NCBI GenBank assembly: GCA_050014195.1
Contig: JBEKDT010000014.1
Location: forward strand, 75,967 to 139,966
Direction: 5' to 3'
From: Desulfomonilia bacterium
Lineage (GTDB): Bacteria > Desulfobacterota > Desulfomonilia > UBA1062
Length of the DNA stretch: 64,000 nucleotides
Made by a program: the position numbers and the translations under genes. Under the pieces are notes generated by a model. That model saw nothing but the letters and a program-made list of their open reading frames with translations. It had not been told where the DNA came from and did not search any database. Each line of letters begins with the position of its first letter. Position 1 is the first letter of the stretch. Below, in pieces: positions 17,129-53,093 of the stretch.

Positions 17129-17677
17129 TTACTCGTCTTGGAGGATAACCTTTGACAAGTCTGGCCTGGCCCGAGGGAGGGTGATTTGTATTCGAGTCCC
17201 GGCAGGTCCGCTTGCAGGGTCGGCGTTTGATTCGATGGTCAAATTGCCAGAATGTAATTTCACGGCCCCATAGGCGAACGGCAGCCCCAGGCCTGTCCCC
17301 TCACCAACGGGTTTTGTGGTGAAAAAGGGGGTGAAAAGCTTGTCCATATTCTCTCTCGAAATACCCCTGCCGGTATCTTGAATTATAATGACGACCTGGT
17401 CAACGCCACCTTGAACGCTTACAGCCAGTTCGCCTCCGTCCGGCATGGCCTCTATGGCATTGGTCTGAAGGTTCACCAGTGCCTTGAAGACCCGTTCTTC
17501 ATCAATCCAAACCGAAGGGTCTGAAATATCCGTTGTCATTGATATTCGGATGTTATCCGGCTTTGGTAGGCTCCGGATGCTCTCTTCAGTCAGGGCGACG
17601 ATATCCGTCTCCCTGCGTTTCAACCCCTGCAGGGCGGATTTTATATTTTCTTCATAATCAATGATATTCCTATCCAT
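17129..17677 (-). CDS. Stand-alone HATPase_c domain (histidine-kinase catalytic domain lacking HisKA)
   Basis: NAIEAM, DTGRGI, FFTTKPVGEGTGLGL boxes; no H-box. Confidence 0.75.
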   Translation of the reverse strand: MDRNIIDYEENIKSALQGLKRRETDIVALTEESIRSLPKPDNIRISMTTDISDPSVWIDEERVFKALVNLQTNAIEAMPDGGELAVSVQGGVDQVVIIIQDTGRGISRENMDKLFTPFFTTKPVGEGTGLGLPFAYGAVKLHSGNLTIESNADPASGPAGTRIQITLPRARPDLSKVILQDE

Positions 17678-31342: not shown

Positions 31343-34030
31343 ATGGTAATGATTATTGATGGCAAGGAATGTACATTCACCCCGGGCCAGACGGTCTACG
31401 AGGTGGCCAGGGCAAACGGCATTCCCATCCCGGTCCTATGCCACCAGGAGCAGCTCAAACCCGTAGGGGCCTGCCGCGTCTGTGTCGTGGAGGTCCAGGG
31501 TGCCCGCTCACTGGTTGCTTCCTGCGCCATGCCTGCGGAGAAGGGCATGATCGTGACCACAAACTCCGAGCGGGTATTGGCCTCCCGCAAACTCACCGTG
31601 GAGCTGCTCCTCACCCAGGGGCATCACAACTGCCTGGTATGCGAGAGCAGCGGTGACTGTGTGCTCCAGAGCCTGGCCTACTCGCTGGGGATCGACACCC
31701 CGCGTTTCCCGGAATCCACTGAGTTCAAACCCCTGGAGCAGGCCAACGAGATGATCGTGCGCGACATGAACAAGTGCATCCTGTGCGGCTTGTGCGTGCG
31801 GGCATGCAATGAGATCCAGGTAAACCAGGTGCTCGACTTTTCAGGACGCGGCCCTACGGCAAGTGTAGGACCGGCCTTTGGCACGACCTATGAGGACTCG
31901 AACTGCGTGTTCTGCGGAGAGTGCGTCCGTCTCTGCCCTGTGGGTGCCATATTTGAGAAGCAGGGCCGTTTCAAGAGCAGGGCCGGCGAAACCCGGAAGG
32001 TGAGAACCACCTGCGGATACTGTGGTGTAGGCTGCCAGATGGAACTGGGCGTGAAGGACGGCAAGGTGGTCAAGGTGACCACCCCCAGATGGAATGCACC
32101 CGCACCCAACTATGGCAGCCTCTGCATCAAGGGCCGTTTCGGATATGACTTTCTTGACCATCCGGACAGGCTCACCAAACCCATGATCAGGGTAGACGGA
32201 GAACTCAAAGAGACAAGCTGGGATGTGGCCCTCGCATACATAGCCGACAAGCTAGGCACCATAAAAGAGAAAAACGGCCCGGATGCCGTTGCCGGTTTGG
32301 CATCGGCCCGGTGTACAAACGAAGAAAACTACCTCTTCCAGAAATTCCTGCGTGCAGTGATAGGCACCAACAATGTGGATCACTGCGCCCGGCTCTGACA
32401 CAGCTCCACAGTGGCCGGTCTGGCCACTGCATTCGGCTCGGGCGCCATGACGAACTCCATTGCGGATATGGAAGAGTCGAAATGTTTTCTCATCACCGGG
32501 ACCAACACGACGGAAAACCACCCGGTGATCTCCACCTTCATCAAGCGGGCAGTGACCCAGCGCGGTGCCAAGTTGATCCTTGCAGACCCGAGGGGCATCG
32601 AGCTCTCCAAGTTTGCAACCGTGTGGCTCCGCCAGAAGCCGGGTACCGACATTGCCTGGATCAACGGTATGATGAATGTGATCATCGGCGAGGGGCTTCT
32701 GAACGAGGCCTTCATCGCCGAGCGTACCGAAAACTTCGAGGCTGTCAAAGAGGCGGTTAAGAAGTATACCCCTGAGTATGTGGAGAAGATCACAGGTATC
32801 CCGGCAGAAGACCTGAAAAAGGCGGCACGACTCTATGCCAAATCGCCTGATGCTTCCATTGTGTATGCCATGGGCATCACCCAGCACATCACCGGGACCG
32901 ATAATGTGAAGTCGCTCGCCAACCTGGCCATGCTCACGGGCAACATCGGCAGGCCCGGCACCGGCGTGAATCCATTGCGCGGGCAGAACAACGTACAGGG
33001 TGCCTGTGATATGGCCTGCCTGCCCGGCAACCTGCCCGGGTATAAGCGGGTTGCCGAAGAAGCTGAGAGGAAGCCCTTCGAGGATGCCTGGGGTGTGAAT
33101 CTGCCAAGCAAACCCGGCCTCACCGTGCCGTACATCATTGAAGGGGCTGGCAAGGGCACCATCAAGGCGCTGTACGTAATGGGCGAGAATCCCATGATGT
33201 CCGATCCGGATACCGCCCATGTGGAAAAGGCATTGAAGAACCTCGACTTGCTCATCGTGCAGGACATCTTCCTCAACGAGACAGGCAAGCTCGCACATGT
33301 GGTGCTTCCGAGCTCCGCCTGGGCTGAGAAAGAAGGCAGCTTCACGAACACTGAACGGAGGGTCCAGCGGGTGCGTAAGGCCGTGGAAGCACCGGGAGAG
33401 GCAATGGATGACTGGAAGATCATCACCATGATCGCAAACAAGTGCGGTGCGAACTGGGTCTATGGGAGCGCCAGGGATATCATGGAGGAGCTTAGGAAGG
33501 TTACTGCATCATATGCAGGCATCACCTATGACCGTATCGAATGGACAGGCATCCAGTGGCCATGCCCCAATACCGACCATCCGGGTACGCCCATACTCCA
33601 CACCCACGCCTTCACCCGGGGCAAGGGGCTCTTCAGTGTGTGCGAGCACATCCCGCCCGCCGAGCAGATCGATGCCGAATATCCCTTTGTCCTGACCACC
33701 GGAAGGATACTCTATCAGTACCATACTGCAACCATGAGCCGCCGCTCCAAGGGGCTTGTATCCAGGACACCCAAGGCCTTTGTGGAGATCAACCGGGCAG
33801 ATGCCGAGGAACTGGGCATCAAGAAGGGCGACAAGGTGGAGATTACCAGCCGCAGGGGCTCCATCGAGGCCCTGGCGGACGTCTCAAACAGATGCGATAC
33901 AGGGGTTGTATTCATCCCGTTCCACTATGCAGAGGCGGCAGTAAACAAGCTCACCATCTCTGCCATCGACCCGGTGGCCAACATCCCTGAGTACAAGGTG
34001 TGCGCGGTGAAGCTCCTGAAGGTGGCATAG
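31343..34030 (+). CDS. fdhF: Selenocysteine-containing formate dehydrogenase alpha subunit (UGA at 32396-32398 read as Sec; 895 aa)
   Basis: ORFs 31343-32398 and 32411-34030 are in one frame joined by HCARL-UGA-HSSTVAGL; LRGQNNVQG; N-terminal FeS module. Confidence 0.93.
32409..32429 (+). promoter_or_regulatory. Bacterial SECIS element
   Basis: CAGTGGCC-GGTCT-GGCCACTG hairpin 10 nt after the UGA. Confidence 0.8.
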
Positions 34031-34100: not shown

Positions 34101-35582
34101 TTATGCGGCCTTGGGCGGTTTGATGAGCAGCACGGCAATGATGATGCCGATCACTGCCAGGCCGGCGGTCGGATAGAAGGCAAAGGTGAAGGACCCAAAA
34201 ATATCCTTGGCCTTGCCCGATATCAACCCACCGAGGATGGCGCCGATGCCGTATGCAAAGAAGACCACGCCATAGTTTCTCGCATAGTTCCTGATGCCGA
34301 AGAACGTGGCCGTTGCAGTGGGTGCTATGGCAAGCCAACCGCCGAGGCAAAGCCAGAATCCCATGAATGCTATTGTGTAAAGGCCCTGGCTTCCTTCCTT
34401 TGCTTGAAGCATCATGATGGATGCGACAAGAATGAGAACCAGGTTCAGCACTGCTGCATTACGCGGGGTGATCTTGTCGGTGAGCGTTCCGAAGATCGGC
34501 CGGCCTATGGCATTGAATATGGCGAATATGCCGACCAGAGAGGCGGCGGCAGCCTTGTCGATCTTGATGACCTCGGTGCCGACCGTGCTGGATATGCCGA
34601 TGGCCATGAGTCCTGCCAGGCAGCCGATGATGTAGCAGAGGAAGAGTCCCCAGAAAGAACCTGTCTTTAGCATCTTGGAGACATCGAAATCCGCAGCAGA
34701 CACTGATGAGGCTGCAGGGGCATAGCCTTCAGGCTTCCATCCGGCTACGGGGAATTTCAGCGGCAGTGACAGGATAACGATGATGAACAGGAAGGCAATG
34801 CCGAAGTACTTGAATGTGGTCGCAAGTCCGACGGATGCGATGAGCACGTCTGCGATCTTCGCAGTGAGCAGTGCAGACCCGCCAAAGCCGGCAAGTGCAA
34901 GACCGACCGCCAAGCCCTTCTTATCAGGGAACCAGCGCGCGGCAACCGCTATCGGGCAGCCGTAGGCAAGCCCTACGCCGCCGCCTGCTATTACGCCGTA
35001 GGTAAGGGTCAGCATGCCGATACTCGTGGCAAAGCTGGAAAGGAACCAGCCGGCTCCGACGATGATACCTCCGATAATAGCCAGGTTCCTGGGGCCGAGC
35101 TTTTCCATGATCTGTCCGCCGAAGAACATGAGTATGGAAAAGAAGGCGAGGAACCCCATGAACGGGAAGTTGCTCTGGAAGGAGGAAACCTTCTGGATCG
35201 ACAGGAGCTTGTCGAGCTGATCAGGAGTAAGTGTCTTCAATGCGGTTGCGTATTCAGCAGCCTTGGTCGCATCTTTTTCCTTGTCGAGTTTGAAAAGTTC
35301 CATCAGCATGGCAGGATCAAGGGTCGCAAACTCGGCCTTGAGCTTTTCTGCCTGTTCCTTCTTGAGGGCGAACACCTTGCCCAGGAGATCATTCTTGAAT
35401 TCCTTGATCTCGGGAACGACCTGCAGCGCAGTGGTCTTATTGAAATAGAGCTCCACCGGCTTCTTGAACACACTGTAAGAATAGACACTACCGAGGCAGA
35501 GATTGATGATCAGGCCCAGGATAACAAAAAGCCATCTCCCGGAATTGGCCTTCATGCCAAAAACATTAACATTGTCAGTCAT
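34101..35582 (-). CDS. OFA-family (oxalate/formate antiporter-like) MFS transporter
   Basis: LGSVYSYSVF, RWFPDKKGLAVG, NAIGR, NYGVVFFAYG; start chosen at MTDNV. Confidence 0.85.
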   Translation of the reverse strand: MTDNVNVFGMKANSGRWLFVILGLIINLCLGSVYSYSVFKKPVELYFNKTTALQVVPEIKEFKNDLLGKVFALKKEQAEKLKAEFATLDPAMLMELFKLDKEKDATKAAEYATALKTLTPDQLDKLLSIQKVSSFQSNFPFMGFLAFFSILMFFGGQIMEKLGPRNLAIIGGIIVGAGWFLSSFATSIGMLTLTYGVIAGGGVGLAYGCPIAVAARWFPDKKGLAVGLALAGFGGSALLTAKIADVLIASVGLATTFKYFGIAFLFIIVILSLPLKFPVAGWKPEGYAPAASSVSAADFDVSKMLKTGSFWGLFLCYIIGCLAGLMAIGISSTVGTEVIKIDKAAAASLVGIFAIFNAIGRPIFGTLTDKITPRNAAVLNLVLILVASIMMLQAKEGSQGLYTIAFMGFWLCLGGWLAIAPTATATFFGIRNYARNYGVVFFAYGIGAILGGLISGKAKDIFGSFTFAFYPTAGLAVIGIIIAVLLIKPPKAA

Positions 35583-35854
35583 TGGAAACCCCCCTCCCAT
35601 CCTTTTGAAATTAGGTGCAATAGCTCGCGTATATACTGATATCAAGCAAATCTGTCAATTGAATAGTGATTCATTATTGCAAAACCATTACCCGCTTATT
35701 ACTCCGGACACGGTTGCAACGACAAGAATCAAAGGCAGATAATTCAACAGGTGGGAACACCATCAACCCATCTTACAGTATACAGAAAATCGAATATATA
35801 TGCAATATTATAAACTATTATTCTATAATCCTAAAAAAAATTGGGAGGGGCGTT

Positions 35855-40889: not shown

Positions 40890-40944
40890 GGCATCACGTT
40901 TCAGTGCATAATTCTGCATACCTACAATTTTGCGGTTTTCCAGC

Positions 40945-40973
40945 TTGACTGGACTTCTAGAAATTTCTATCAT
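40945..40973 (+). promoter_or_regulatory. Sigma-70 promoter for the riboswitch-MutS operon
   Basis: TTGACT-17 bp-TATCAT just upstream of the riboswitch. Confidence 0.6.
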
Positions 40974-40985
40974 TTGACCGTTACA

Positions 40986-41037
40986 AAGGGATGGAGTTCC
41001 CCTGACAAACGCCCGGGCCGGGCTGATAACTCCTACC
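40986..41037 (+). ncRNA. Fluoride (crcB) riboswitch #1
   Basis: GGGATGGAGTTCCCC...AAACGC...GCTGATAACTCCTAC matches the crcB consensus. Confidence 0.85.
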
Positions 41038-41378
41038 ACGCGGCGGTAGAGTTGAAGCTGTGCGTCCGCATCATGGCCCAGGAGGTGTTTGTCTCATGAC
41101 TTTCCACAGCATATTATTTGAAAGAACTGAAGATAGCACAAAAAAAGAATCGCTTGAAGCGCCCGCCTTTTTTGTTGATTTGAATCTTGATCAGGTTATC
41201 GACACCATCACGGCCGGCAGGAAGGAATATAATTTAAAGCCGTTTTTTTACACTTCCCTGTCCGATATCGACACGATCAAGTATCGTCATGAAATAATGC
41301 AGGATCTGGAAAATAAAACGGAAGTATGTACTTTACGCAATAATTGCTCTTTCATCCCCAATGCCTCCATCTGGTGCC

Positions 41379-41528
41379 TTACTTACTTTGGCCCTTTGAT
41401 GGTTTTTTCTTTTTCAATGATTCCTTGACTGCGTCCTGCCAATCGCCATCAATTTTAAGTAATTTAGGTTTTGGACCAGGGGCCGTAATTTTGGCTCTAC
41501 GCCTCTTTGTATGACAGATATCACTCAT
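41379..41528 (-). CDS. Small basic IS passenger peptide (49 aa)
   Basis: [49 protein letters not shown] with AAGGGAG RBS; below the ORF-track cutoff. Confidence 0.55.
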
Positions 41529-41706
41529 GCCGTATGTTCTCCCTTATGTAACTGCTGGCATAATTACTATTGACAGTTACGGCAAAGGTTATTAAGCAGA
41601 AGACAACCATGATGGCATTTCTTATGGATCGGATGGAATTTCCTTGTATTTCAATATCAATGGTGATACAGTAACGACAGGTCAAATAAATGGGAGGTGA
41701 TGATTT

Positions 41707-42120
41707 ATGAGTTTCGAGATTTTCTCTCGCAAAGCAACATATCGTGGAGTCCCGTCTGTAACGTTTACGAAGACAGGCCGAATGGCATTTAATAAGGCCG
41801 CAACTGCTATCTTTGAAAAGAATGCAGTGGAGAACGTCCTCCTGCTGTGGGATAAAGACAAACGACTTATTGGGGTGCGGCCCATAACTAAGAAGGATAA
41901 CCGGGCTTATTTTGTGAGCGCTGGGACTAGAAAAAACGGGTGTGGATTCACAGCAATGACTTTTGTTAAGTACATTGGACTTGATATTTCGAGTTCTAGG
42001 GCTTTTCCTACCCGTTGGGATGAGCTGGAAGAAATGTTTTTGATTGAAGTGCCGGAAGAATATCTTAATAAGGATGGTGTCCCATCGAAGGGAAAAAAGA
42101 AACCAACTGAGGGAGCCTAA
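41707..42120 (+). CDS. Hypothetical IS passenger protein (137 aa)
   Basis: Strong GGGAGGT RBS; no family recognised. Confidence 0.7.
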   Translation: MSFEIFSRKATYRGVPSVTFTKTGRMAFNKAATAIFEKNAVENVLLLWDKDKRLIGVRPITKKDNRAYFVSAGTRKNGCGFTAMTFVKYIGLDISSSRAFPTRWDELEEMFLIEVPEEYLNKDGVPSKGKKKPTEGA

Positions 42121-42195
42121 AAAATGTCTGCTGTAAAGACAGAAACCCCCTGATGCTGTAACATCAGGGGGCACATCAAAGAAAGGAGGAACGAC

Positions 42196-42285
42196 ATGTG
42201 CTGTAGGGTTCATCGTTCCACCAAGAGGATTGTGGTTACAATCCGTTTAAAATGGATTGAAATCACAATTGTCTTTCCTCCATAG
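42196..42285 (+). CDS. 29-aa peptide MCCRVHRSTKRIVVTIRLKWIEITIVFPP
   Basis: AAAGGAGG RBS 6 nt upstream; flanked by hairpins at 42145-42170 and 42312-42336. Confidence 0.5.
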   Translation: MCCRVHRSTKRIVVTIRLKWIEITIVFPP

Positions 42286-42348
42286 GGCCTAACGGCTCTT
42301 TGGGGAAGCATGCCGGAGAGCACTGCGCTCTCCGGCCTTTAACTACAA

Positions 42349-42447
42349 GCGGGCGTGGCGGAATTGGAAGACGCGCTGGCCTTGGATGCCAGTGGGTGCC
42401 TTGCTTAAGGGATAACACCCGTGCGGGATCGAAGCCCGTCGCCCGCA
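42349..42447 (+). tRNA. tRNA-like gene: Leu-type body, anticodon TGG (Pro), 30-nt variable region, no encoded CCA
   Basis: Acceptor GCGGGCG/CGCCCGC + A73; D-arm TGGCGGAATTGGAAGACGCG; anticodon arm CTGGC-CTTGGAT-GCCAG; T-arm GCGGG-ATCGAAG-CCCGT. Confidence 0.8.
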
Positions 42448-42493
42448 TCTTTATATATAAAGATAGCATCGTTTTATCATTTTGTCAAAAATT

Positions 42494-43480
42494 TCATATA
42501 ACCTTTAAAGATGTATCTTTTGGAGACTTATACATCAACCGTTTTCCCTCAGCTGAATGTATGGCTCTGATTACACGATCACCATCATTCAATGTACGAT
42601 TATTCCAAATAAAGTCAAATTGCCAGAGATAACGATGAAGATGTTCATGGCTGACATTATGGTAGATTCCAACTATCCCACGTTTTACAACTGCGAAGGA
42701 TGATTCGGCTGTATTGGTATGAACATCTCCACGAACATATTCATGCGTGGAATGACATACTTTATCATGACCGCCCATAAAGAAGGAACCAATTCCTCTG
42801 TATGCTTTATAATCATCTGTGATAATACGTGATCTAACATCTACTTCTTGTTTTATGGCTGAATGTAATGTTTCTCCTGTAACGTCTGCTACGACACGAC
42901 GTCTAATATGACCATTTCTTTCGACGGCTGCAAATACAGGAGTTTTGCTTGTCCCGCGACCTCGTTTATGTATCTTCCCATCTCCATAACGAGGCTTACC
43001 ACCTATATAGGTTTCATCACATTCGACTATTCCATTAAGTTTTTCTGTATTAGAATCTGGTGCCATTGCATAACGGATTCTATTCATCAGAAACAATGCC
43101 GACTTGTAACTAATCTGACAATGTCGCTTAATTTCCAATGCTGCTACACCTTTCTTTGAGGTTGAGGCTCTCCAAAATGCATAACACCAATGGCGAAGAT
43201 CAATCCGCGATTCTTGATATACTGTTCCAATTCTGACAGTATATTGATTGTTACAATCCCGACAACGCCACAAAAAACGCTTATTCCGCATCCCAGTTTT
43301 AGAATCACTCATTTTGTATACTTGTGTACTTCCACAATGAACACAGGTCGGCTTATCTCCCCATCTCTGCTTTTCAAAGAACTCAACGGCTGCTAGTTCA
43401 TCGCAACAAGCTAATGGCATATCTTCAATAATGTCAGATTTTGCTAAATTCGAATGGTCGATTTTTTTATTTTTCTTCAT
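42494..43480 (-). CDS. IS1595-family transposase
   Basis: Zn ribbon CVHC...CRDC, VECDETYIGG, IITDD, VHTNTAESSF, HLHRYL. Confidence 0.93.
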   Translation of the reverse strand: MKKNKKIDHSNLAKSDIIEDMPLACCDELAAVEFFEKQRWGDKPTCVHCGSTQVYKMSDSKTGMRNKRFLWRCRDCNNQYTVRIGTVYQESRIDLRHWCYAFWRASTSKKGVAALEIKRHCQISYKSALFLMNRIRYAMAPDSNTEKLNGIVECDETYIGGKPRYGDGKIHKRGRGTSKTPVFAAVERNGHIRRRVVADVTGETLHSAIKQEVDVRSRIITDDYKAYRGIGSFFMGGHDKVCHSTHEYVRGDVHTNTAESSFAVVKRGIVGIYHNVSHEHLHRYLWQFDFIWNNRTLNDGDRVIRAIHSAEGKRLMYKSPKDTSLKVI

Positions 43481-43488
43481 ATATTAAT

Positions 43489-43516
43489 ATTATACTTAAC
43501 GCAAAGCATTTGTCAA
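43489..43516 (-). promoter_or_regulatory. Consensus sigma-70 promoter of the transposase (near-leaderless)
   Basis: TTGACA-16 bp-TATAAT on the minus strand; ATG 8 nt after the -10 box. Confidence 0.7.
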
Positions 43517-44879
43517 GGGGCAAATGATATTTTTTAGCGTTTGCGTAAAGTACATACTTCCGAAATAAAATTCTCTTTGAGAATATAAAAACATTTGCAC
43601 AAGAAATGCGCGCAATGCGACAGCATCTTGCCCTGGTGGAAGAGCTTCACTACAAATACCACAAGGAAGGATGGTTTTTAGAAACAATAGATATTTATTG
43701 TGAAGCCGTTCATCGCCTGGTACACGAGTTAACCCTTGCAGATTTAAAATCGCGCGGCTTTTTAGCCTTCCGGGAGTATATAACGAACTATGCCAGATCC
43801 GACCATTTTATGTCCCTTTTAGCTGAAACGAAAAAGCTTAAAGCCGATTTATCCGCCGTAAAGTATTGCCTGCTCATAAAGGATAACAGCATCAAGGTTT
43901 GCACATATGAATCCGGAATTGATTACAGTGCAGATGTGGAGCAGACATTCGAGAGATTCAAACAGGGAGCGGTGAAAGATTACCGGGTCAAATTTTCCAC
44001 CGGGCCTGAAATGAACCATGTTGAAGAGAGAATACTGGATCAGGTAGCCCGATTGTATCCCAATATATTTTTAAGTCTCGATGATTATTACGCGAGGAAC
44101 GGCAATTTTCCAGATGAAACGATAGCCGTTTTCGACCGGGAGATACAATTTTACATCGCCTATCTGGAGCATATCGCACAATTCAAGCGAGTGGGATTAA
44201 AATTTTGTTATCCGAAAATTTCTACCCAGTACAAGGAAGTGTATGATTATGAAGGATTTGATTTAGCACTGGCCAATAAACTCATGAGTGAGAACTCATC
44301 CATTGTCTGCAATGATTTCTACCTGAAAGACAAGGAACGCATATTTGTAATATCCGGTCCGAATCAGGGAGGGAAAACAACCTTCGCCCGCACCTTCGGA
44401 CAGTTGCATTATCTGGCTACCATAGGTTGTCTCGTCCCAGGCAGAGAAGCACAACTCTTTTTGTTCGACAGGCTCTTTACCCATTTTGAAAAGGAGGAAC
44501 ACATCGAGAATCTCCGTGGTAAACTGCAGGATGACCTCGTCAGAATCCACAAGATTCTCAATCAGGCCACATCAAACAGTATTATCATAATGAATGAAAT
44601 TTTCACTTCCACAACACTAAAAGACGCTATTCTCCTGGGTAAGAGGATAATGGAAAAAATAATACAATTGGATTTGCTGTGCGTTTGCGTGACATTTATA
44701 GATGAACTGGCTTCTTTAAGTGAAAAAACCGTAAGCATGGTCAGCACGGTAGTTCCCGAAAATCCGACATTGCGAACATATAAAATAGTAAGAAGGCCTG
44801 CCGACGGACTTTCATACGCGATATCAATCGCCGAAAAGTATCGACTTACCTACGATTGTTTGAAGGAGCGGATAAAATC

Positions 44880-46451
44880 ATGAAGGCTTTCCTCATGTAT
44901 AAGGATCGTGATTTTGATCTCCAGCAGGAGTTGCCATGGAATGAACAAGCATTGACACAAGACCTGGAATTAAACACACTGTTTTCTGCCATGGCCCTCG
45001 GCAACACATTTTTGTTTGAAGTGGCAAAGAACGCTGTTTTGACCGGTTTCCATAATGATCCGGACACAATACGATATCGCCAAGATATTCTAAAAGATTG
45101 TCTGAAGAACTCTTCCATTGTGAGGGATATCTACGACATTGCTGTGGAAGCAATCGAAAGCAAGAGAAAACATTGGTATGGCATATTCAGACATGATTCT
45201 CCCACCTCGATACTGCATACTTCATTAGAAAAAATGCAGACATTTGTGGGCCTGCTTAAAAAAATAAAGAATATTGCTGATGAACACGCCGATAAATTCG
45301 AGTCGGAAGGCTTTAGGGCGTTCTTCGCGATGTTCGAAAAAGAACTTGGCGATGAATATTTTGCAGGCGTTCAACATCATCTAAGGGCGCTCAAATTCCG
45401 CAAAGGAGTTTTGATCAGTGCTGAATTGGGAACAGGCAACAAAGGTACCAATTACATACTTCATGAAACACACGAAAAAAAGCAGAGTTGGATGGAGTGG
45501 ATCTTTGCCGGAATACAGAGTTGGATGGAGCAGATCTTTGCCAAAAAAACGACCGGTTACACCTTTTATATCAGTGAACGTGATGAAAGCGGCTTCAGGG
45601 CCTTGGCAGGATTAAGAGACAGGGGGATCAACCACGCAGCCAATGCTCTCGCCCAATCTGGTGATCATGTTCTTAATTTCTTTATCATGTTGCGGACCGA
45701 ATTGGCTTTTTACGTTGGTTGTCTGAATTTACACGGGCACCTTGCCAAAAAAGGGGAGCCCATATCTTTCCCTCTGCCCGCGGCTCCCGGCGAACGCAGA
45801 CATTCTTTTCATGGATTATACGATGTCTGTCTGGCTTTAAACCTGGAACAAAGGATTGTGGGCAACGATGTGAATGCCGACAATAAAAACCTCGTGATAA
45901 TCACAGGCGCCAACCAGGGCGGCAAATCAACTTTTTTGCGAAGCATAGGTTTATCCCAATTGATGATGCAATGCGGCATGTTTGTGCCGGCTGAGTCTTT
46001 CTGTTCCAATGTCTGTGACGGTATTTTCACACACTACAAAAGGAAAGAAGACGTTACCATGAATAGCGGGAAACTTGATGAAGAACTCGGTAGAATGAGC
46101 GCTATCGTAGACAACATAACGGCAAATCCCATGATACTGTTAAATGAATCATTTGCCGCGACAAACGAAAGAGAAGGCTCGGAGATTTCAAGGCAGATAA
46201 TGTGTGCATTATTGGAAAGGCACATCAAGATTTTCTTCGTTACTCATGTATATACATTTGCGCATGGTTTTTATGACAAAAAAATGGAAAACGCCATTTT
46301 CTTGCGGGCTGAAAGGCAAAGCGACGGAGGACGAACTTTTAAAGTAATTGAAGGCGAACCATTGCAAACCAGCTATGGCGAAGATTTGTATAACGGGATA
46401 TTCGAAACCGACGCAAGCACTAAGGTGCGGGAGGCGCTGGACAGTGAATGA
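44880..46451 (+). CDS. MutS-like (domain V ATPase) protein B
   Basis: ATGA overlap with protein A; [30 protein letters not shown]. Confidence 0.88.
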
Positions 46452-46638
46452 GGAAAGGTATCTTTTTATTCAGTTCATTTAATCGTCCAATATACTTTTT
46501 CAAATACTGTCCGGTATACGAGTGTTCGACGTGCACGATTTGGTCAGGGCTGCCCTTGGCAACAAGAAAGCCACCTTGATCTCCACCCTCGGGACCAAGA
46601 TCAATAATATGATCTGCGGACCTGATGATATCCATCAT
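46420..46638 (-). pseudogene. uvrA: UvrA C-terminal remnant
   Basis: [21 protein letters not shown]...SYTGQYL equals the extreme C-terminus of UvrA; rest of gene absent. Confidence 0.75.
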
Positions 46639-46682
46639 CTAAGTCGGCATGATAATGACTCCTCAGGTTTGGGTACTATTCG

Positions 46683-47972
46683 TTATTTCTTCACGCTGTA
46701 CAGAACGTCCTTACCCCTGAATACTGCACTTTCCCCTAATTCTTCTTCGATGCGCACGAGCTGGTTGTATTTGGCAAGGCGCTCGCTCCGGGAGGTTGAC
46801 CCTGATTTGATTTGTCCGGTACAGAGACCGACTGCAAGGTCGGCAAGCCATGGGTCCTCGGTCTCACCCGAGCGATGGGATATGACCGTGGTGAACCCGG
46901 CCCTCTTGGCGGTTTCAATAGTTTGCATTGTCTCAGTGATCGTTCCTATCTGGTTTACCTTGATGAGTATGGAGTTGGCACAACCCTCCTCAATGCCGCG
47001 TTTCAGGTACTTCATATTGGTTACGAAGATGTCGTCGCCCACGATCTGTACTTTATTGCCAAGGCGTTTCATGAGGAGTTGCCAACCGTTCCAGTCATTT
47101 TCCGCGAGGCCGTCTTCTATGGAAACGATAGGGTACTTCTTGACCAGCTCCTCATAAAAGTCGATCATCTCTTCAGAAGTCCTCTCGGGATCTTTTTCAG
47201 AGGCCAGGATGTATTTGCCGTCCTTATAGAACGAGCTTGCTGCAGGATCGATGGCAATTGCTATATCCTTACCCGGTTTATAGCCTGCCTTGCTGATGGC
47301 TTCCACGATGAGATCAAAGGGCTGGGTGTTATTCTTCAGATTCGGGGCGAAGCCACCCTCATCACCTACCCCTGTGCTGTAGTCATTTTTCTGGAGGATA
47401 TCCCGCAGGGCATGGAACGTCTCGGCTGCGTAGCGCAGGGCTTCTCTGAAATTCGGTGCGCCGATGGGTGTGACCATGAACTCCTGGAGGTCTACATTGT
47501 TGTCTGCGTGCTTGCCCCCGTTGATGATGTTCATCTGCGGAACCGGAAGCTCCCGGGCAAGGGCGCCGCCCAGATATCGATAGAGAGGGACACCAATGAA
47601 ATTAGCAGCTGCCCTGGCTGAGGCTATGGAAACACCTGTTGTGAGGTTGGCGCCGAGAACGGACTTGTTTTCCGTTCCGTCCAGTTCGATAAGCATGGAG
47701 TCAATGCCCGCCAGGTCCAGCACATCCATGCCGACAAGCTTGGGTGTCACGATCTTGGTCACGTTCTCCACAGCCTTGAGTACGCCTTTGCCCCGGTATC
47801 TCTTCTTATCTTCGTCCCTCAGCTCTACGGCCTCGCTTTCCCCCTTTGATGCACCAGAAGGAACCGATGCCCTACCCATTTCACCTGTTGAAAGGTGAAT
47901 GTCTATCTCAATGGTCGGATTACCCCGTGAATCTAAAATTTCCCTTGCAGCGACAGTAACAATCTTACTCAT
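46683..47972 (-). CDS. eno: Enolase
   Basis: [43 protein letters not shown]. Confidence 0.96.
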
Positions 47973-48037
47973 ATAATCCCCCTCGGTTCTCTTTGATTGT
48001 AAATCTCATACTCCATAGTCTGATGGTGGTCGTCTCG

Positions 48038-48499
48038 TCATTCAACCTTGCTGAAATCGGTCTTGAGGAGGAGCCTCATGGCATCCCGCATCTGCTCTTT
48101 TTGCCTGAGAAGGGCCAGGTCTTGGGGAGATTCCTGGAATTTTTCCAATGCATGGAAAAAGCGATCGAGGATATCGTCCTTGTAGGTCGGAATCAAAAAG
48201 ATATGGGTGTGGGGTATCCGCCGCCCACGGGCATACATAAAGATAAAATCCGATGAGAAAGCCTTCATCATCTTGTTGGCAATTGTTCTTGCCGCTTTGA
48301 ATACGTTCTCGGTCTCTTCCACGGTCATCTCATGCCACCAGGTCACATGCCTCTTGGGGATGACCAGGCAGTGGCCTCTGGTATAAGGATGTATGTCAAG
48401 TATGCATATGGAGGTATCATCTTCGTAGACCGGATATGCCAATTCCTTTCCGGCAACGATATCGCAGAATATGCACGGTGCCTTATCCTCTTGAGTCAT
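48038..48499 (-). CDS. HIT family protein (variant HxHxF motif)
   Basis: CIFCDIV, GHCLVIPKRH, IPHTHIFLIP. Confidence 0.82.
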   Translation of the reverse strand: MTQEDKAPCIFCDIVAGKELAYPVYEDDTSICILDIHPYTRGHCLVIPKRHVTWWHEMTVEETENVFKAARTIANKMMKAFSSDFIFMYARGRRIPHTHIFLIPTYKDDILDRFFHALEKFQESPQDLALLRQKEQMRDAMRLLLKTDFSKVE

Positions 48500-48511
48500 A
48501 GTGCCTCCTTT

Positions 48512-48685
48512 TTAGCGTAAGCTGGAAAGCATAAGCGACGGCTCTACGGTAAAATGTGAAATATCATTCATGTAACGAGGCCGCCTTTGAGCGTGCCCTT
48601 GCATGCATTGAACGAATGAGGACTGTGTTCTTGAAGGGAATTGTATAATGCCAGAAGCCGGATGACTTTTAAGGGCAAGCGCCAT
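48512..48685 (-). CDS. 57-aa leader ORF; N-terminus resembles the start of the dynamin-like gene
   Basis: MALALKSHPASG... behind GAAGGAG RBS directly after riboswitch #2. Confidence 0.4.
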   Translation of the reverse strand: MALALKSHPASGIIQFPSRTQSSFVQCMQGHAQRRPRYMNDISHFTVEPSLMLSSLR

Positions 48686-48707
48686 ACATTCTCCTTCAGA
48701 TTTCTCT

Positions 48708-48757
48708 GACAGGAGTCATCAGCCTACCCGGCGGTTATGGGGGACTCCATCCCTGAT
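48708..48757 (-). ncRNA. Fluoride (crcB) riboswitch #2
   Basis: Minus strand GGGATGGAGTCCCCCATAACCGCC...GGCTGATGACTCCTG. Confidence 0.88.
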
Positions 48758-48900
48758 CTTCGTTAAATGTGTACTGTATTAAGGGTAAAGCTGTCAATCA
48801 CGAGCTGGAACATTCCATTAACCTCTCCAGCCGGAAATATCATTACCCTTGAGCACGTTTTATACTCTCGCCTTACAGGTTTCTTCATTCATCAGTACAC

Positions 48901-49893
48901 CTATGGTTCAGCACATGCGGCAGCAACACGATGTGCAAGCACCATTATTGTTTCTGCGGCACCAAGGCCGGAGATCCCGGGAAATCCTTCATACTCCATT
49001 TTCTTCGAGTCCAGGATAATGCCGTGGACCTCAAAGTCGGCATACATGCCTATCATATAGGCCGACACACGAGAGGCCATATCATCGCAATCGGGACCTG
49101 CCTCCTGTATATCCACTGCGGCCGCACGCACGAGGCGGCCTCCTCCCCGGGTCTGGCGGACATATGCACCAATTATTGGATGTGCGAACATGACAGCATC
49201 TGGTTCCGACAGAGCCATGCAAAGATTTGCCCGCTCAAAGTCCAGGACCGCCACACCTTCTTCGACCGTGGAAGCCGGATACACAACAGGAGGTGAGTTG
49301 TTCGGTCTGTGAACGGCCGTTGATCGCGACACCCTCAACCACCCGGGTTCATGTGTGAACTCCACATCTGTGTGCAGGTATGCCTCACTTCCACAAAGAC
49401 CTTCCTGCAACTCATCTTTTCTGCACAACACCACGATATCCCATTTCTGCCCCCGAAGCTGCGAGGCCAGCTTAGCAATCCTTGAAAACATTTCAACGAA
49501 GCCGTCTGGAATTCGACCTCCTACAATGGCCATCGTATACATTCCTCTTCGGAGCAGCACCGACGCGAGCCTGCCGAGTCCGTCCGCAAACCGGGCCTCA
49601 CATGCAGGGCTGCCGGGAAGGGCAAAATCCCCTAATCCCCGAGCAATCCAGACAGCTGCGGTACAAGGATCAAAAGTTTTAATCTTCAAGGCAAGGGCTG
49701 TTCCCCAGATAAGGCCGGTCAGTGCGGCGGCGCCCGCAGCCGGATCGGCTACGTGCAAATCATTGGCGAGTTCATCAACATTAATACCAAAGCTGTTCGC
49801 AAAGTCCACGACCGCCTGCCAAGACTCGAAATGAGATTCCTGTATAATCCCCTTGATGCGGGAGGGATTGTCCAGCTTGTGAACAGCCGGCAT
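48901..49893 (-). CDS. Hypothetical protein (330 aa)
   Basis: Long ORF with GAGG RBS 11 nt after the antiporter; no family recognised. Confidence 0.6.
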   Translation of the reverse strand: MPAVHKLDNPSRIKGIIQESHFESWQAVVDFANSFGINVDELANDLHVADPAAGAAALTGLIWGTALALKIKTFDPCTAAVWIARGLGDFALPGSPACEARFADGLGRLASVLLRRGMYTMAIVGGRIPDGFVEMFSRIAKLASQLRGQKWDIVVLCRKDELQEGLCGSEAYLHTDVEFTHEPGWLRVSRSTAVHRPNNSPPVVYPASTVEEGVAVLDFERANLCMALSEPDAVMFAHPIIGAYVRQTRGGGRLVRAAAVDIQEAGPDCDDMASRVSAYMIGMYADFEVHGIILDSKKMEYEGFPGISGLGAAETIMVLAHRVAAACAEP

Positions 49894-49904
49894 GGATCAG
49901 CACC

Positions 49905-51104
49905 TCACTCGTTCCCCGGGCCTTCTTCCACCTCTTCTGCTGTGGGTTCGGGCGTGCCCGGCAGCAGTGAATACGGGATGAATGCCAGGTTGGCGATCAT
50001 GGTGGGGATGACTGCGCTTGCGATGACACCGGCAACGAGAAAAGAATACTGCGCACGGGTAACAATTCCATGTGAGAATCCATAAAGTGCCGATATGGTC
50101 CCGAAGGTGAGCCCGGTGGACATCATCAGGGTATAGTACCATCGTTCATCGATATTTCTGCGGAACAGTCCTATCACCGGGTAGAGTCCGAAGATCTTGC
50201 TTGCCACTTTCCCGGCCAGGAGTACAAGAAATATCATGGGCGCCGTCGCTATGGCGGGCAGGGAAACAAGCGATCCTGCCCGAAGGAAATAGAACGGTGT
50301 CAGGAACCCGATACACAGGGTGCGCATTCTCCGAACCCACAGGTCATCCCTGGCAGCGAATTCCGCCAGCACTATCCCTGCAATATACGCCGGGAGGACA
50401 GCTTCGCTGCCCGACCAGATCGCCAGCGCCCCGAGGCCGAACAGAACGAACAGTATCCACTTGGCCCTGATGGCGGCTGTCCGGTGTCCGTATTTCCGTG
50501 TGATGCGCTTGGATATAAACGGAAGCACTGCCATCGCGGCAGCTGTTCCAGCGATAAAGATGATGGTCTTGTAGGAAAAAGGGGCAAAGAGCAGCCCCAG
50601 GACAATCACGGTCCCGAGGTCGTTGACGAAACAGGCCCCGAGGATGCCCTTGCCGAACTCGGTCCGGTTGAAGCCGGTCTCGAGCATGACTGCATAAACC
50701 ACGGCCATTGACGTGGTCGAGAGCGCCACTCCTGCAAGAAGGCTTGCAGAAGGTGTCCATCCCAGCGCATAGCGTGCGAGTGCGGCACACCCCAGGAAAG
50801 GCGCGGTAAATCCGATAAGACCGATCACGGTCACCTCTTTCCATTTTGTGCGGATGACCGCGGGTTCCAGCTCGGCCCCGGCCAGGAAGGTCAGGAGCAC
50901 CGCCCCGGTGGATGCGAGGAAACGGAGCCATTCCGTGTCAGCGCCGATGATCCCGTGCCCCAGGAAATACTCGCAGGCCGCTCCAGCGGCCATGCCCACG
51001 CAGATCTCCACCAGGGCCATGGAGATTCTCAGGTAGTAGGCGATAATCGTTGCCAATACTGCAAGGCCGACCCACAAGGCCGCGATAGTGAAGGGTAGTT
51101 CCAT
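49905..51104 (-). CDS. Cation:proton antiporter (CPA2/Kef-like)
   Basis: Multiple TM helices; LTFLAGAELEP, ALSTTS, FVNDLG. Confidence 0.85.
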   Translation of the reverse strand: MELPFTIAALWVGLAVLATIIAYYLRISMALVEICVGMAAGAACEYFLGHGIIGADTEWLRFLASTGAVLLTFLAGAELEPAVIRTKWKEVTVIGLIGFTAPFLGCAALARYALGWTPSASLLAGVALSTTSMAVVYAVMLETGFNRTEFGKGILGACFVNDLGTVIVLGLLFAPFSYKTIIFIAGTAAAMAVLPFISKRITRKYGHRTAAIRAKWILFVLFGLGALAIWSGSEAVLPAYIAGIVLAEFAARDDLWVRRMRTLCIGFLTPFYFLRAGSLVSLPAIATAPMIFLVLLAGKVASKIFGLYPVIGLFRRNIDERWYYTLMMSTGLTFGTISALYGFSHGIVTRAQYSFLVAGVIASAVIPTMIANLAFIPYSLLPGTPEPTAEEVEEGPGNE

Positions 51105-51151
51105 TGAATCCTCCGTCTTGATGTTTTTCGCCTATGTGCCGGCAAGGGTGT

Positions 51152-52813
51152 TCAAGCATCGATTACATACCCCTGAAGTTCTGAAATAAGATCATGAAGC
51201 TCATGGGTCTTTCCCTGGCTTTTTGACAACAGGGCATCGATGGTGGAGAGCTCATCCCTGATATAGCTTTCCGTCTGCTTGCGCATCCCGTCGATGGCCT
51301 TGTTGATCCGGGTCTCCCACTGGGTAATAAGCCGGGAGATGTTCACCTCCGTCGCCCATGAAATCTCTTTGAGAAAATGTTGTTCAAAAAACCTCCTGAA
51401 AATAAACATAGGGATGAGGAACCAGAGAAGATCGAATTTGAAATCAAAGGTGTAGAGAACCCCGATGTCGGGATTATCAGGCTCTGTCACTTCGATCTTC
51501 CAGTCCGTCTCCGCAAGCCTTATCCCCAGCACCTTGTCAATATTGTCATTGAGCATCATCCTGAAGGTTTCAAGGTAGCGGGTGAGGCTGTTATGCGCCT
51601 TGTTCAGGGTGCCGGAGAAGTGTCTGTTTTCCGCCCTGGAGATATGCCGTATCTCTTCTTCCATGTTTTCGGCCACCCATGCTTCATACATTCTGGTCAG
51701 CTTCCACAGGTTTCCTTTCCAGGAAGGCATCTCTCCGGACAGCTTGGCTTTGAGCTTCTCTGTGAGGGGATTATTAAATTTTTCAAGATGATTCGTCAGG
51801 AGCCCCCGGGTCTGCTTCTGGCATTCTCTTGTAATGACGCCGATCTCTTCCCTGATCTGATCATAACCGACCTTTTCATTCAGGATCTGAGAGTGGAGCG
51901 CCTCACGGTCCTGATCGGCCTCAACAGAAGTCTTCATGGCGATATTGAGATAGGAAAGACAACTTCCGAGCAGTGACTGGGTCTTGTAGTTCAGTATGCG
52001 ATGAAACTCCTGATCCCGGTTCATGGACAGGCCGGACAGGAGCTCCGCCTCGATACGGTGCTTGAAAAATTCCATCCCGACGCGGGTCGAATAGAGAAAT
52101 ATGGGATACTCCCGATTCAACTTCCGCTTTAATGTCTGCTGGAAGAATTGCACTACCTCATTCTGCTGATCCGGACTCAAAAGGTCAGCCTTGGTGAGGA
52201 GGATGACGATCGTGGGAGTATGATGGGAGAGGTCTGCGATGAGATTGAGATCGTGCTCGGAGAGCGGGCGGTCGGAACTGATGGCCAGCACGGCTGCCCC
52301 TACCTCGGGGAGCCAGTTCTCGGACACCTCCTTGTGATATGTGAACACGCTTCCCAGCCCCGGGGTATCCACCAGGCGGAGGCCGGGATAGGCTTCGAGT
52401 GCAGGCAGCTCAATGTCCACGATATCGACGTTTCTGGAATTGGACGGGTTTTGGGCCTCGGAGATGAACTTCTCCAGATCTTCGATGCCTATCTCGGACC
52501 TTGTGCCGTCGATGTAGGTGATCATCGAGCGTACTTGCGGACCGTATTGAAGACGGGTGATCACCGTGGTGACCGGAATGACCCCGACGGGGAGTATTTC
52601 CCGGTCCACAAGGCTGTTGATGAACGAGCTCTTGCCCGCCTTGAACTGGCCGAGTATGGCCACATCGATAATCGGGTTTTCCTTGAGGAGGCTTTCGCAG
52701 ACTTCGATCTGGCGGTTCAGGGAAACGATATGAAACCGTGAGGCTGCTTCGTCAATTTTACTGACCAATTCCTTGGTGTCTGAGATGGGTAAGCTTTTAG
52801 ATGCAAGCTCCAT
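51152..52813 (-). CDS. Bacterial dynamin-like GTPase
   Basis: G1 GQFKAGKS, G2 IPVTT, G3 DTPG, G4 TKAD; helical C-terminus with a hydrophobic paddle. Confidence 0.85.
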   Translation of the reverse strand: MELASKSLPISDTKELVSKIDEAASRFHIVSLNRQIEVCESLLKENPIIDVAILGQFKAGKSSFINSLVDREILPVGVIPVTTVITRLQYGPQVRSMITYIDGTRSEIGIEDLEKFISEAQNPSNSRNVDIVDIELPALEAYPGLRLVDTPGLGSVFTYHKEVSENWLPEVGAAVLAISSDRPLSEHDLNLIADLSHHTPTIVILLTKADLLSPDQQNEVVQFFQQTLKRKLNREYPIFLYSTRVGMEFFKHRIEAELLSGLSMNRDQEFHRILNYKTQSLLGSCLSYLNIAMKTSVEADQDREALHSQILNEKVGYDQIREEIGVITRECQKQTRGLLTNHLEKFNNPLTEKLKAKLSGEMPSWKGNLWKLTRMYEAWVAENMEEEIRHISRAENRHFSGTLNKAHNSLTRYLETFRMMLNDNIDKVLGIRLAETDWKIEVTEPDNPDIGVLYTFDFKFDLLWFLIPMFIFRRFFEQHFLKEISWATEVNISRLITQWETRINKAIDGMRKQTESYIRDELSTIDALLSKSQGKTHELHDLISELQGYVIDA

Positions 52814-52835
52814 ATACGCTCCTTCAGATCTCTCT

Positions 52836-52886
52836 GAGAGGAGTCATCAGCCTGCTTGGCGGTTAAAAGGGGGACTCCATCCCCAA
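52836..52886 (-). ncRNA. Fluoride (crcB) riboswitch #3
   Basis: Minus strand GGGGATGGAGTCCCCCTTTTAACCGCC...GGCTGATGACTCCT. Confidence 0.88.
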
Positions 52887-53093
52887 TTCGGCAAAGGATA
52901 TGTATCGCGCAGAAACGAGATTGTCAATGTTGAATCATGAACAATGATTCGGACACATTGGCTGGCATGAAACTGAAGGACCTTGTTGCGTTCCGGGATC
53001 ATCCCCGGTATCCTTTTTTTTAAAGAATTCATATTGTCCGGGATGTAATACTTTACTGTGCTGGCAATAGTATATCCTTTAGGAAGGTACCCC

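Follow-up and report, generated by a model that had tools for sequence, protein, structure and literature searches.

Three fluoride riboswitches and a CPA2-type antiporter in a Desulfomonilia genome with neither known fluoride exporter

We analyzed 64,000 nucleotides (nt) from the genome of a Desulfomonilia bacterium (assembly GCA_050014195.1, contig JBEKDT010000014.1, positions 75,967 to 139,966 of the forward strand; hereafter the window), in which three operons are each preceded by a fluoride riboswitch. The host is a free-living peat or wetland anaerobe with a genuine riboswitch-controlled fluoride-stress island, and its genome shows neither of the known fluoride exporters, Fluc (CrcB) and CLC-F. 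The core of the island would be the operon behind switch 3, which encodes a dynamin-like GTPase, a CPA2-type cation/proton antiporter and a GGGtGRT-family protein. Judging from sequence comparisons, we see about an even chance that this antiporter is the main fluoride defence of the cell and acts in a Kef-like manner, shrinking the pH gradient that traps fluoride. The source assembly (G000) is a draft of 4.2 Mb in 29 contigs, and a search of sequencing runs found DNA of the window in peat and wetland metagenomes.

The riboswitches were identified with the covariance model RF01734 from Rfam (gathering score 34 bits), which was applied to the window and to the whole source assembly. Only three matches were found in all 4.2 Mb, each of full length and all inside 12 kb (Table 1). 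The three points at which an earlier sequence-only reading of this DNA had placed crcB-type riboswitches (40986, 48757 and 52886) lie inside these matches, above the gathering score. In a test of structure, the three aptamers were aligned with 18 aptamers of relatives: 98.4% of the 246 cells in P1, P3 and the pseudoknot are compatible with pairing, compared to 42–69% when the partners are slid, and double-sided changes occur at four pairs; we count both pairing and covariation as support for the structure. The pseudoknot (GGAGU loop and ACUCC tail) is invariant in all 20 distinct rows and hence speaks neither for nor against pairing, and the outer P1 pair is an A-C mismatch in switches 1 and 2.

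A pattern scan found no terminator-like site 3' of any of the three aptamers on the same strand, and intrinsic terminators were rejected as expression platforms. For switches 2 and 3, the fold of minimum energy contains a pairing between the CUCCU at the 3' side of the aptamer and an AGGAG Shine-Dalgarno sequence 7 nt before the start codon; in switch 1, the 3' CUCCU is able to pair with an AGGAG Shine-Dalgarno sequence approximately 45 nt downstream (local fold; the z-score is not significant). Since CUCCU forms both the ligand-bound pseudoknot and the Shine-Dalgarno hairpin, all three switches look like translational ON switches. Without fluoride, the 3' strand of the aptamer (ACUCCU) would act as an anti-Shine-Dalgarno sequence and pair with AGGAG, while with fluoride it would be drawn into the pseudoknot and the ribosome site would be freed.

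A six-frame search of the whole source genome with the CRCB model (PF02537) yielded no match; the same search was positive in 11 of 14 control genomes. The single CLC protein of the genome (contig C7, 580 amino acids (aa)) reads GSGIP, GREGP and GIFSP and is extended at its C-terminus; among solved proteins, ClcA Cl-/H+ exchangers are the best matches to it (1e-38). The signatures of CLC-F are given as GNNLI/GMGLI, GREGT/V and GEVTP (PMC11139923). None of the three is present in this protein, which by its motifs is chloride-type. The sequence-only reading had noted the lack of a canonical exporter for the window, and the search extends this to the whole genome. Among 41 genomes of the same class, the source genome included, a riboswitch match with E <= 0.001 was found in 23 genomes (in 21 of them above the family cut-off) and CRCB in only two, both of one genus; it was absent from all 14 other genomes of the genus and from all 24 other genomes of the family. 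At the CLC loci of the class relatives, the gate motif was readable in 23 of 25 cases and was always GREGP, and GEVTP was found in none of the 25.

One could argue that a canonical exporter was missed, either in an assembly gap or as being too divergent for the models: the assembly is a draft, crcB is short, and CLC-F was excluded by motif reading alone. We consider this very improbable, as marker-gene completeness of the assembly is 100%, CRCB is also missing from the 14 genus and 24 family genomes mentioned above, the identical search was positive for 127 (42%) of the 301 drafts from the phylum, and each of the three riboswitches has genes other than an exporter gene behind it. As a separate observation, six relatives from the genus (G002, G003, G008, G009, G012 and G014) have a chloride-type CLC gene and a fluoride riboswitch on one contig, 2–13 kb apart, whereas the CLC gene of the source genome (C7:145086-146123) is on another contig than the riboswitches.

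The antiporter is a bare membrane domain with no regulatory or gating domain. A pair of aspartates in transmembrane helix 5 (TM5) and a lysine in TM10 are the signature of electrogenic CPA2 proteins. The best solved sequence relative of the antiporter is NapA (4BWZ, 3.7e-11), whose Asp-Asp pair aligns with N161-D162 of the antiporter and with T-D in some of its relatives; K299 and K303 are invariant, yet the pairwise alignment sets the NapA lysine opposite P309. At least 97% of 96 sequences share D162, the STTS stretch 129-132, K299 and K303. With the NCBIfam model of the CPA2 family (TIGR00932) the protein scores 105.3 bits, which is below the cut-off of 238.3, and matches to KefC and KefB are weak (about 1e-9). 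A structure model built from nine sequences (mean pLDDT 60.6, pTM 0.64) allows for fold-level matches only; with this low confidence it resembles NapA (TM-score 0.67–0.73) and KefC (0.69), and also NhaP and NhaA. Given that the cation-site residues are conserved and that the relatives are CPA2 proteins, cation/proton exchange is the more probable activity. Compared to the glutathione-gated K+/H+ exchangers KefC and KefB, with which the antiporter appears to share its fold, it has no KTN/RCK gating domain, so that its control would lie at the level of expression, by the riboswitch; compared to NapA, its TM5 motif is N-D or T-D and not D-D. Fluc and CLC-F occupy the same niche, that of a riboswitch-controlled membrane defence, but are unrelated to the antiporter in fold and sequence.

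The link between this antiporter and fluoride riboswitches is widespread. An alignment-based scan with one genome per species identified at least 567 relatives of the antiporter, and the best 80 of these, which are 62–86% identical and come from more than 15 phyla, were used for the locus analysis. Riboswitches at these loci were placed with a covariance model made from the aptamers of this lineage, Rfam serving as a check. A riboswitch was found upstream of the antiporter gene in 71 of the 80 loci (within 350 nt in 68 of them, and farther away with genes between in three), while none was found at nine loci. CRCB was present in five of the 77 genomes behind these loci (three of 50 and two of 27), and none of the 30 CLC loci in the first 50 genomes carried GREGT/V or GEVTP.

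Co-occurrence was also counted in two phyla; counts of this kind are not phylogenetically independent. Among 301 genomes of the own phylum with a completeness of at least 90%, 45 have the antiporter (threshold E <= 1e-60) and nine have both genes: CRCB occurs in nine of the 45 antiporter-positive genomes compared to 118 of the 256 antiporter-negative ones (Fisher p = 0.001, uncorrected for relatedness). When only antiporter hits with at least 60% identity are considered, CRCB is found in none of 16 genomes (one of the 16 genes is interrupted by a stop codon). In a second phylum, that of genome G064, 201 genomes contained CRCB in 97 cases (48%, including the unpublished G403 and G428), the antiporter in eight and both in three; none of the three genomes with hits of at least 60% identity has CRCB. 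In a quick maximum-likelihood tree of 96 sequences with midpoint rooting, the antiporter of the window falls in a clade of 81 rows, 76 of them without CRCB, on a stem of 0.57 changes per site (SH-aLRT 100). Nine substitutions, including F202T, S210A, E211A, E213R, L256W and T324Y, mark this clade relative to its crcB-linked sister group; by E211A and E213R, two negative charges are lost and one positive charge is gained at the predicted start of a membrane helix.

Kef systems protect cells by acidifying the cytoplasm, and the water of peat is typically acidic and contains little salt. The proposed mechanism combines these two points. The antiporter would swap cytoplasmic K+ (or Na+) for external H+ with no net charge moved, and the entry of protons would lower the pH gradient. 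Without an exporter, cytoplasmic fluoride would be set by the diffusion of HF and by the pH gradient, and a smaller gradient would trap less of it; as there is then no exit for fluoride, a protective membrane transporter must either shrink the gradient or carry fluoride itself. In acidic low-salt peat, the same gradient that traps fluoride would also drive H+ inward through a K+/H+ or Na+/H+ exchanger. That fluoride accumulates as a weak acid and that acidification protects yeast is stated in PMC11139923.

Several observations weigh against the antiporter as a substitute for the exporter. The published view is that riboswitch-linked Na+/H+ antiporters counter acidification (PMC11139923), i.e. 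the opposite of the effect proposed here. Neither CRCB nor the antiporter was found in 138 of the 301 genomes of the phylum; the lack of CrcB is common there and therefore needs no replacement as its explanation. In seven of the nine genomes with both genes, crcB lies within approximately 3 kb of the antiporter gene or in the same operon, which suggests that the antiporter family may also work alongside the channel; the antiporters of these seven genomes are about 46–59% identical to that of the window. The key motifs do not differ between the CrcB-free clade and the crcB-linked sister group. The ten CRCB-positive rows of the tree fall outside the 81-row clade, but they were fetched because they were positive, and the 60% identity line was set after the data had been seen. 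CLC-F was excluded with short motifs instead of a dedicated model, in the source genome, the class relatives and the first 50 of the 77 genomes behind the antiporter loci. Most of the genomes compared are metagenome bins, no RNA run was among the sequencing runs listed as matching the window stretch, and the fold z-scores of the switch platforms are weak (from -1.8 to 0).

The published view leads to a different explanation, classical pH homeostasis: the antiporter would expel the protons brought in by HF, and fluoride would leave through an unrecognized exporter, for example a major facilitator superfamily (MFS) transporter or the product of a gene outside riboswitch control. Such a role would agree with the presence of antiporter relatives in operons with crcB, where the removal of protons would complement the channel, and the riboswitch operons of the sister family f2 and of genome G023 do contain an MFS transporter and a USP gene in addition. 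In the source genome, however, the three switches have no membrane transporter behind them other than the antiporter; where the habitat is acidic and poor in salt, electroneutral exchange could hardly move protons out of the cell; and proton extrusion without an exit for fluoride would widen the pH gradient and trap more fluoride, as follows from the weak-acid logic of PMC11139923. A role in proton removal suits the crcB-linked sister group better than the exporter-free genomes, and as an explanation for the latter we hold it to be rather unlikely.

A bolder explanation makes the CPA2-like protein the exporter: it would carry fluoride out of the cell, with or without a cation, and would represent a third bacterial family of fluoride exporters. 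The near-obligate riboswitch control (71 of 80 loci), the near exclusion of CrcB (five of 77 genomes), the identity of 62–86% between proteins from more than 15 phyla, a sign of strong selection and of horizontal spread, and the long stem, on which changes such as E211A and E213R have become fixed, are all in line with this explanation, as are the Ser/Thr-rich crossover segments (STTS 129-132; S329, T330 and T333). However, neither the cation-binding D162 nor the lysines that characterize cation/proton antiporters vary, every one of the nearest solved proteins transports cations, and the core motifs are shared with the crcB-linked sister group; furthermore, we know of no anion-carrying member of PF00999. 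Fluoride transport by this protein is in our opinion decidedly unlikely, and we are equally doubtful about the broader form of this idea, in which the long-branch, riboswitch-gated clade of CPA2 proteins would be a third, horizontally spread primary transporter for fluoride defence, its boldest form being the export of fluoride, perhaps with a cation. If true, many uncultured anaerobes would use this clade in place of Fluc and CLC-F.

More than 85% of bacteria are reported to carry Fluc or CLC-F, and those without either tend to be reduced intracellular symbionts (PMC11139923). The genome described here is that of a free-living anaerobe with 4.2 Mb and three fluoride switches that shows neither exporter, and the pattern is genus-wide. 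The classes of genes controlled are mostly known. Other fluoride riboswitch regulons (RF01734) have the same aptamer class and share as targets mutS-like genes, K+/Na+ transport and enolase: genes for mutS and for K+ or Cl- transport were named behind the motif by Weinberg 2010 (PMC2864571), Na+/H+ antiporters rank second after exporters among the riboswitch targets and enolase is listed (PMC11139923), and the FRM island of E. cloacae is a multi-gene, riboswitch-driven fluoride operon with eno (PMC5533749). The differences are that the genome described here has no crcB or CLC-F match, that three switches are located within 12 kb and are all apparently translational, that a dynamin-like GTPase, a HIT protein and a GGGtGRT protein are among the targets, and that one operon is cut by an insertion sequence (IS). 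The exporter-free pattern is the new part, although the lists in Baker 2012 and McIlwain 2021 may hold exporter-free genomes. The suggestion of the sequence-only reading that the island relies on non-canonical effectors fits these comparative data.

The second point of significance concerns the antiporter clade, which spans more than 15 phyla, is nearly always riboswitch-gated and almost never occurs with CrcB. Our literature search found no functional study of riboswitch-linked antiporters, and the clade turns a twelve-year-old loose end, the role of the "Na+/H+ antiporters" behind fluoride riboswitches, into a testable matter: whether one gene protects an exporter-free cell, and whether it does so by collapse of the pH gradient or by movement of fluoride. 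This matters for how fluoride is tolerated in peat and acidic soils, and also for designing hosts that degrade organofluorine compounds.

The gene neighbourhoods of related genomes (20 regions from 19 genomes) show which part of the island is kept. The first gene behind the switch encodes a dynamin-like GTPase in 11 of the 20 regions, and an antiporter homolog is present in the riboswitch operon in ten; in the sister family f2, the order in the riboswitch operons is antiporter, USP, MFS. The full layout with three operons was found only in the source genome and, decayed, in its congener G002, in which the counterpart (L029, G002:C14:232000-251900, corresponding to 40922-52884 of the window) has the same three switches. 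G002 lacks the stretches equivalent to 44018-46594 (the rest of MutS-like gene a and all of gene b) and 46976-48022 (two thirds of the enolase gene from its 5' end) and also the GGGtGRT gene; the same accessory genes seem to have been lost independently here. The pair of dynamin and antiporter genes is intact and has kept its open frames in the source genome, G002, G003, G005 and G023. Since the accessory operons decay in the source genome and in G002 while the pair stays intact, the pair would be the part under selection.

The same data bear on another explanation, in which most of the island would be a remnant in decay that has little function today. An IS splits a MutS-like gene in the source genome, accessory genes are gone in G002, and other members of the genus retain just one or two switches. 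However, the aptamers and the dynamin-antiporter pair are intact in the five genomes listed above, and the HIT and enolase genes are intact in the source genome, so that decay hits accessory operons and not the core; we regard a mere remnant as improbable.

Table 1. Features of the fluoride-stress island in the window.
Feature	Position	Strand	Evidence or remark
Promoter-like site TTGACT-17-TATCAT	40945..40973	+	Consensus scan, 10/12 matches, pattern match only; just 5' of riboswitch 1
Fluoride riboswitch 1	40978-41042	+	RF01734, 44.5 bits, E 4.4e-9, full length
MutS-like gene a, 5' fragment	41096..41318	+	Starts with ATG 41096; 74 codons and 1 nt, sequence read
Target-site duplication AAATAAAA, 8 bp	left 41311..41318, right 43563-43570	.	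Both copies read in the sequence
IS1595-family insertion element, 2,244 bp	41319..43562	.	41% G+C versus 51% for the window
Passenger open reading frame inside the element	41707-42120	+	No family match
tRNA-Leu-like gene inside the element, 99 nt	42349-42447	+	Rfam tRNA, 47.3 bits; missed by ARAGORN
Transposase inside the element	42494-43480	-	Pfam DDE_Tnp_IS1595, 3e-36, and Zn_ribbon_IS1595
MutS-like gene a, 3' part	43571..44883	+	MutS_V, 2.2e-21
MutS-like gene b	44856..46451	+	MutS_V, 2.6e-22; ATG 44880 is the likely start and overlaps with the stop codon of gene a
Second enolase copy, at the end of the switch-2 operon	46683..47972	-	TIGR01060, 666.6 bits, cut-off 300
HIT-family protein	48038..48499	-	PF01230, 3.5e-15, 56.8 bits versus 21.5
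57-codon upstream reading frame	48512..48685	-	Start codon gated by switch 2; 13 nt separate its end from the start of HIT
Fluoride riboswitch 2	48703-48763	-	RF01734, 45.2 bits, E 2.7e-9, full length
GGGtGRT-family protein, soluble	48901..49893	-	PF14057, 7.5e-19
CPA2-type cation/proton antiporter, 399 aa	49905..51104	-	PF00999, 1.5e-31, 110 bits versus 26.2
Bacterial dynamin-like GTPase, first gene of switch-3 operon	51152..52813	-	Dynamin_N (PF00350), 83.6 bits, cut-off 27
Fluoride riboswitch 3	52831-52893	-	RF01734, 49.8 bits, E 8e-11, full length

The genes behind the switches are those that the sequence-only reading had named; with Pfam they are assigned to MutS_V (twice), to HIT and enolase, and to Dynamin_N and Na_H_Exchanger, the third gene of the last operon being PF14057. 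In this operon, the antiporter gene follows the gene of the dynamin-like GTPase after 47 nt. The solved relatives of the GTPase are the dynamin-like proteins (DLP) of C. jejuni (DLP1/2, 5OWV), IniA of M. tuberculosis (6J72) and BDLP of Nostoc (2J68), with E values from 5e-13 to 1e-11; as in these proteins, a Dynamin_N GTPase domain is followed by a long helical remainder, but only the GTPase region aligns, and the family found in the window differs by being under the control of a fluoride riboswitch. Near its C-terminal quarter the protein has a hydrophobic stretch, FDLLWFLIPMFIF, which is under the hydropathy threshold used. Relatives of the GTPase occur in 57 of the 301 genomes of the own phylum; at 21 of 29 fetched loci, a riboswitch is located upstream on the strand of the gene, with crcB between the two in two of these 21. 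The sequence-only reading had described GTPase genes as reported behind fluoride riboswitches, for which our literature search gave no confirmation; it found no link between dynamin-like proteins and fluoride riboswitches, Baker 2012 and McIlwain 2021, which may list GTPases, being outside the search.

For the GGGtGRT protein, neither a solved sequence relative nor a usable Atlas match was found. Among the loci compared, its gene is part of a riboswitch operon elsewhere only in G023; the 330-aa gene that follows the antiporter gene in G005 is unrelated to it.

Switch 2 would act through an intermediate reading frame. The start codon that it gates belongs to a 57-codon frame and not to the HIT gene, and the Shine-Dalgarno sequence of this frame is inside the CUCCU/AGGAG hairpin. 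The first approximately 45 nt of the frame resemble the 5' end of the dynamin gene at the nucleotide level, and because of this likeness the leader of switch 2 looks like a duplicated copy of that of switch 3. The frame is altered by an 8-nt indel in G002, yet an open reading frame (ORF) still spans the region from the gated ATG into the HIT start. Pfam and BLASTP gave no match for the 57-codon product. The "leader" of a leader-HIT-enolase operon, as the sequence-only reading had it, did not stand up as a conserved peptide, and a protein-level fragment of dynamin was rejected on the same grounds, namely the empty BLASTP result and the frame that is not kept in G002. Instead, the 57-codon frame looks like a relay that couples translation to HIT and enolase, and by this relay switch 2 would gate the HIT gene and a spare enolase gene.

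The motif of the HIT family is His-x-His-x-His; in the HIT protein of the window, the motif region reads H-T-H-I-F and has two histidines. The spare enolase is 81% identical to the other enolase of the genome, which is encoded on contig C2, and would add copies of the fluoride-inhibited enzyme. Extra copies of enolase are an established response to fluoride (PMC5533749, PMC11139923).

Behind switch 1, the sequence-only reading had seen a MutS-like pair at the head of the operon; the two MutS_V genes are indeed there, but the first is split by an insertion element and the operon is broken. If the element and one copy of the target-site duplication are removed, the frame of MutS-like gene a is restored and the intact gene has 511 codons. 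Both proteins contain the ATPase domain only and also resemble the KamC reactivase ATPase (9e-21 for gene b, below the cut-off). As the element follows codon 74, switch 1 is now separated from most of its operon; it would once have driven the pair of MutS-like ATPases, which are now probably outside fluoride control. A 122-codon ORF (41060-41428) was considered as a divergent CrcB and rejected: it has no family match and is the N-terminus of the MutS-like protein running into the element.

The element has terminal inverted repeats of 22 nt (41319-41340 and 43541-43562) that are 100% complementary, and its transposase scores 175.6 bits with NF033547 (cut-off 75). It resembles the IS1595 family in its zinc-ribbon and DDE_Tnp_IS1595 transposase, terminal inverted repeats, 8-bp duplication and documented empty site, and differs in that its 2.2 kb are longer than a bare transposase needs, with a passenger ORF and a tRNA-Leu-like gene. 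Over its first 49 nt, the latter matches the tRNA-Leu(UAG) gene of contig C8 with 88% identity; the anticodon loop reads CUUGGAU, so that the anticodon would be UGG, and the variable arm is longer. This gene would be a passenger copy that has decayed, or else a tRNA of the Leu type that bears a proline anticodon. The source assembly has one full copy of the element and, besides, the 49-nt match to the tRNA-Leu gene.

Three observations demonstrate that the insertion is real. First, G002, which is 96.5% identical to the window over 43563-44018, has an uninterrupted insertion site, at which the two BLAST segments overlap by exactly the 8 nt of the duplication. Second, the IS-bearing stretch is covered without a difference by contigs of all four peat and wetland runs, which may be the source of this DNA and are not independent of it. 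Third, related contigs in three of the four runs join 41122 to 43649 with 274 other letters between, which is the exact IS-free spacing. The ends of the element (41310-41339 and 43542-43565) also occur on other contigs of three of the four runs (X1, X3 and X14) at a depth of 186–458, one contig of X1 carrying both ends, whereas contigs with the locus itself have a depth of only 7–32. Elements sharing these ends look abundant in the community.

Some minor observations were made elsewhere in the window. At 17158-17249 (plus strand), just after the gene of tyrosyl-tRNA synthetase, ARAGORN predicted a 92-nt "tRNA-???" with a two-letter anticodon, for which Rfam gave nothing at the gathering threshold. 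An MFS transporter gene at 34101-35645 (minus strand), next to formate-dehydrogenase genes and with no riboswitch here, is 78% identical to a gene of G014 (L045:1858-3414) that lies 1.7 kb downstream of a truncated fluoride-riboswitch match. A formate-dehydrogenase-like molybdopterin oxidoreductase is encoded by two ORFs on the plus strand (31343-32398 and 32411-34030), which are in the same frame and 12 nt apart; the split could be due to an in-frame selenocysteine codon.

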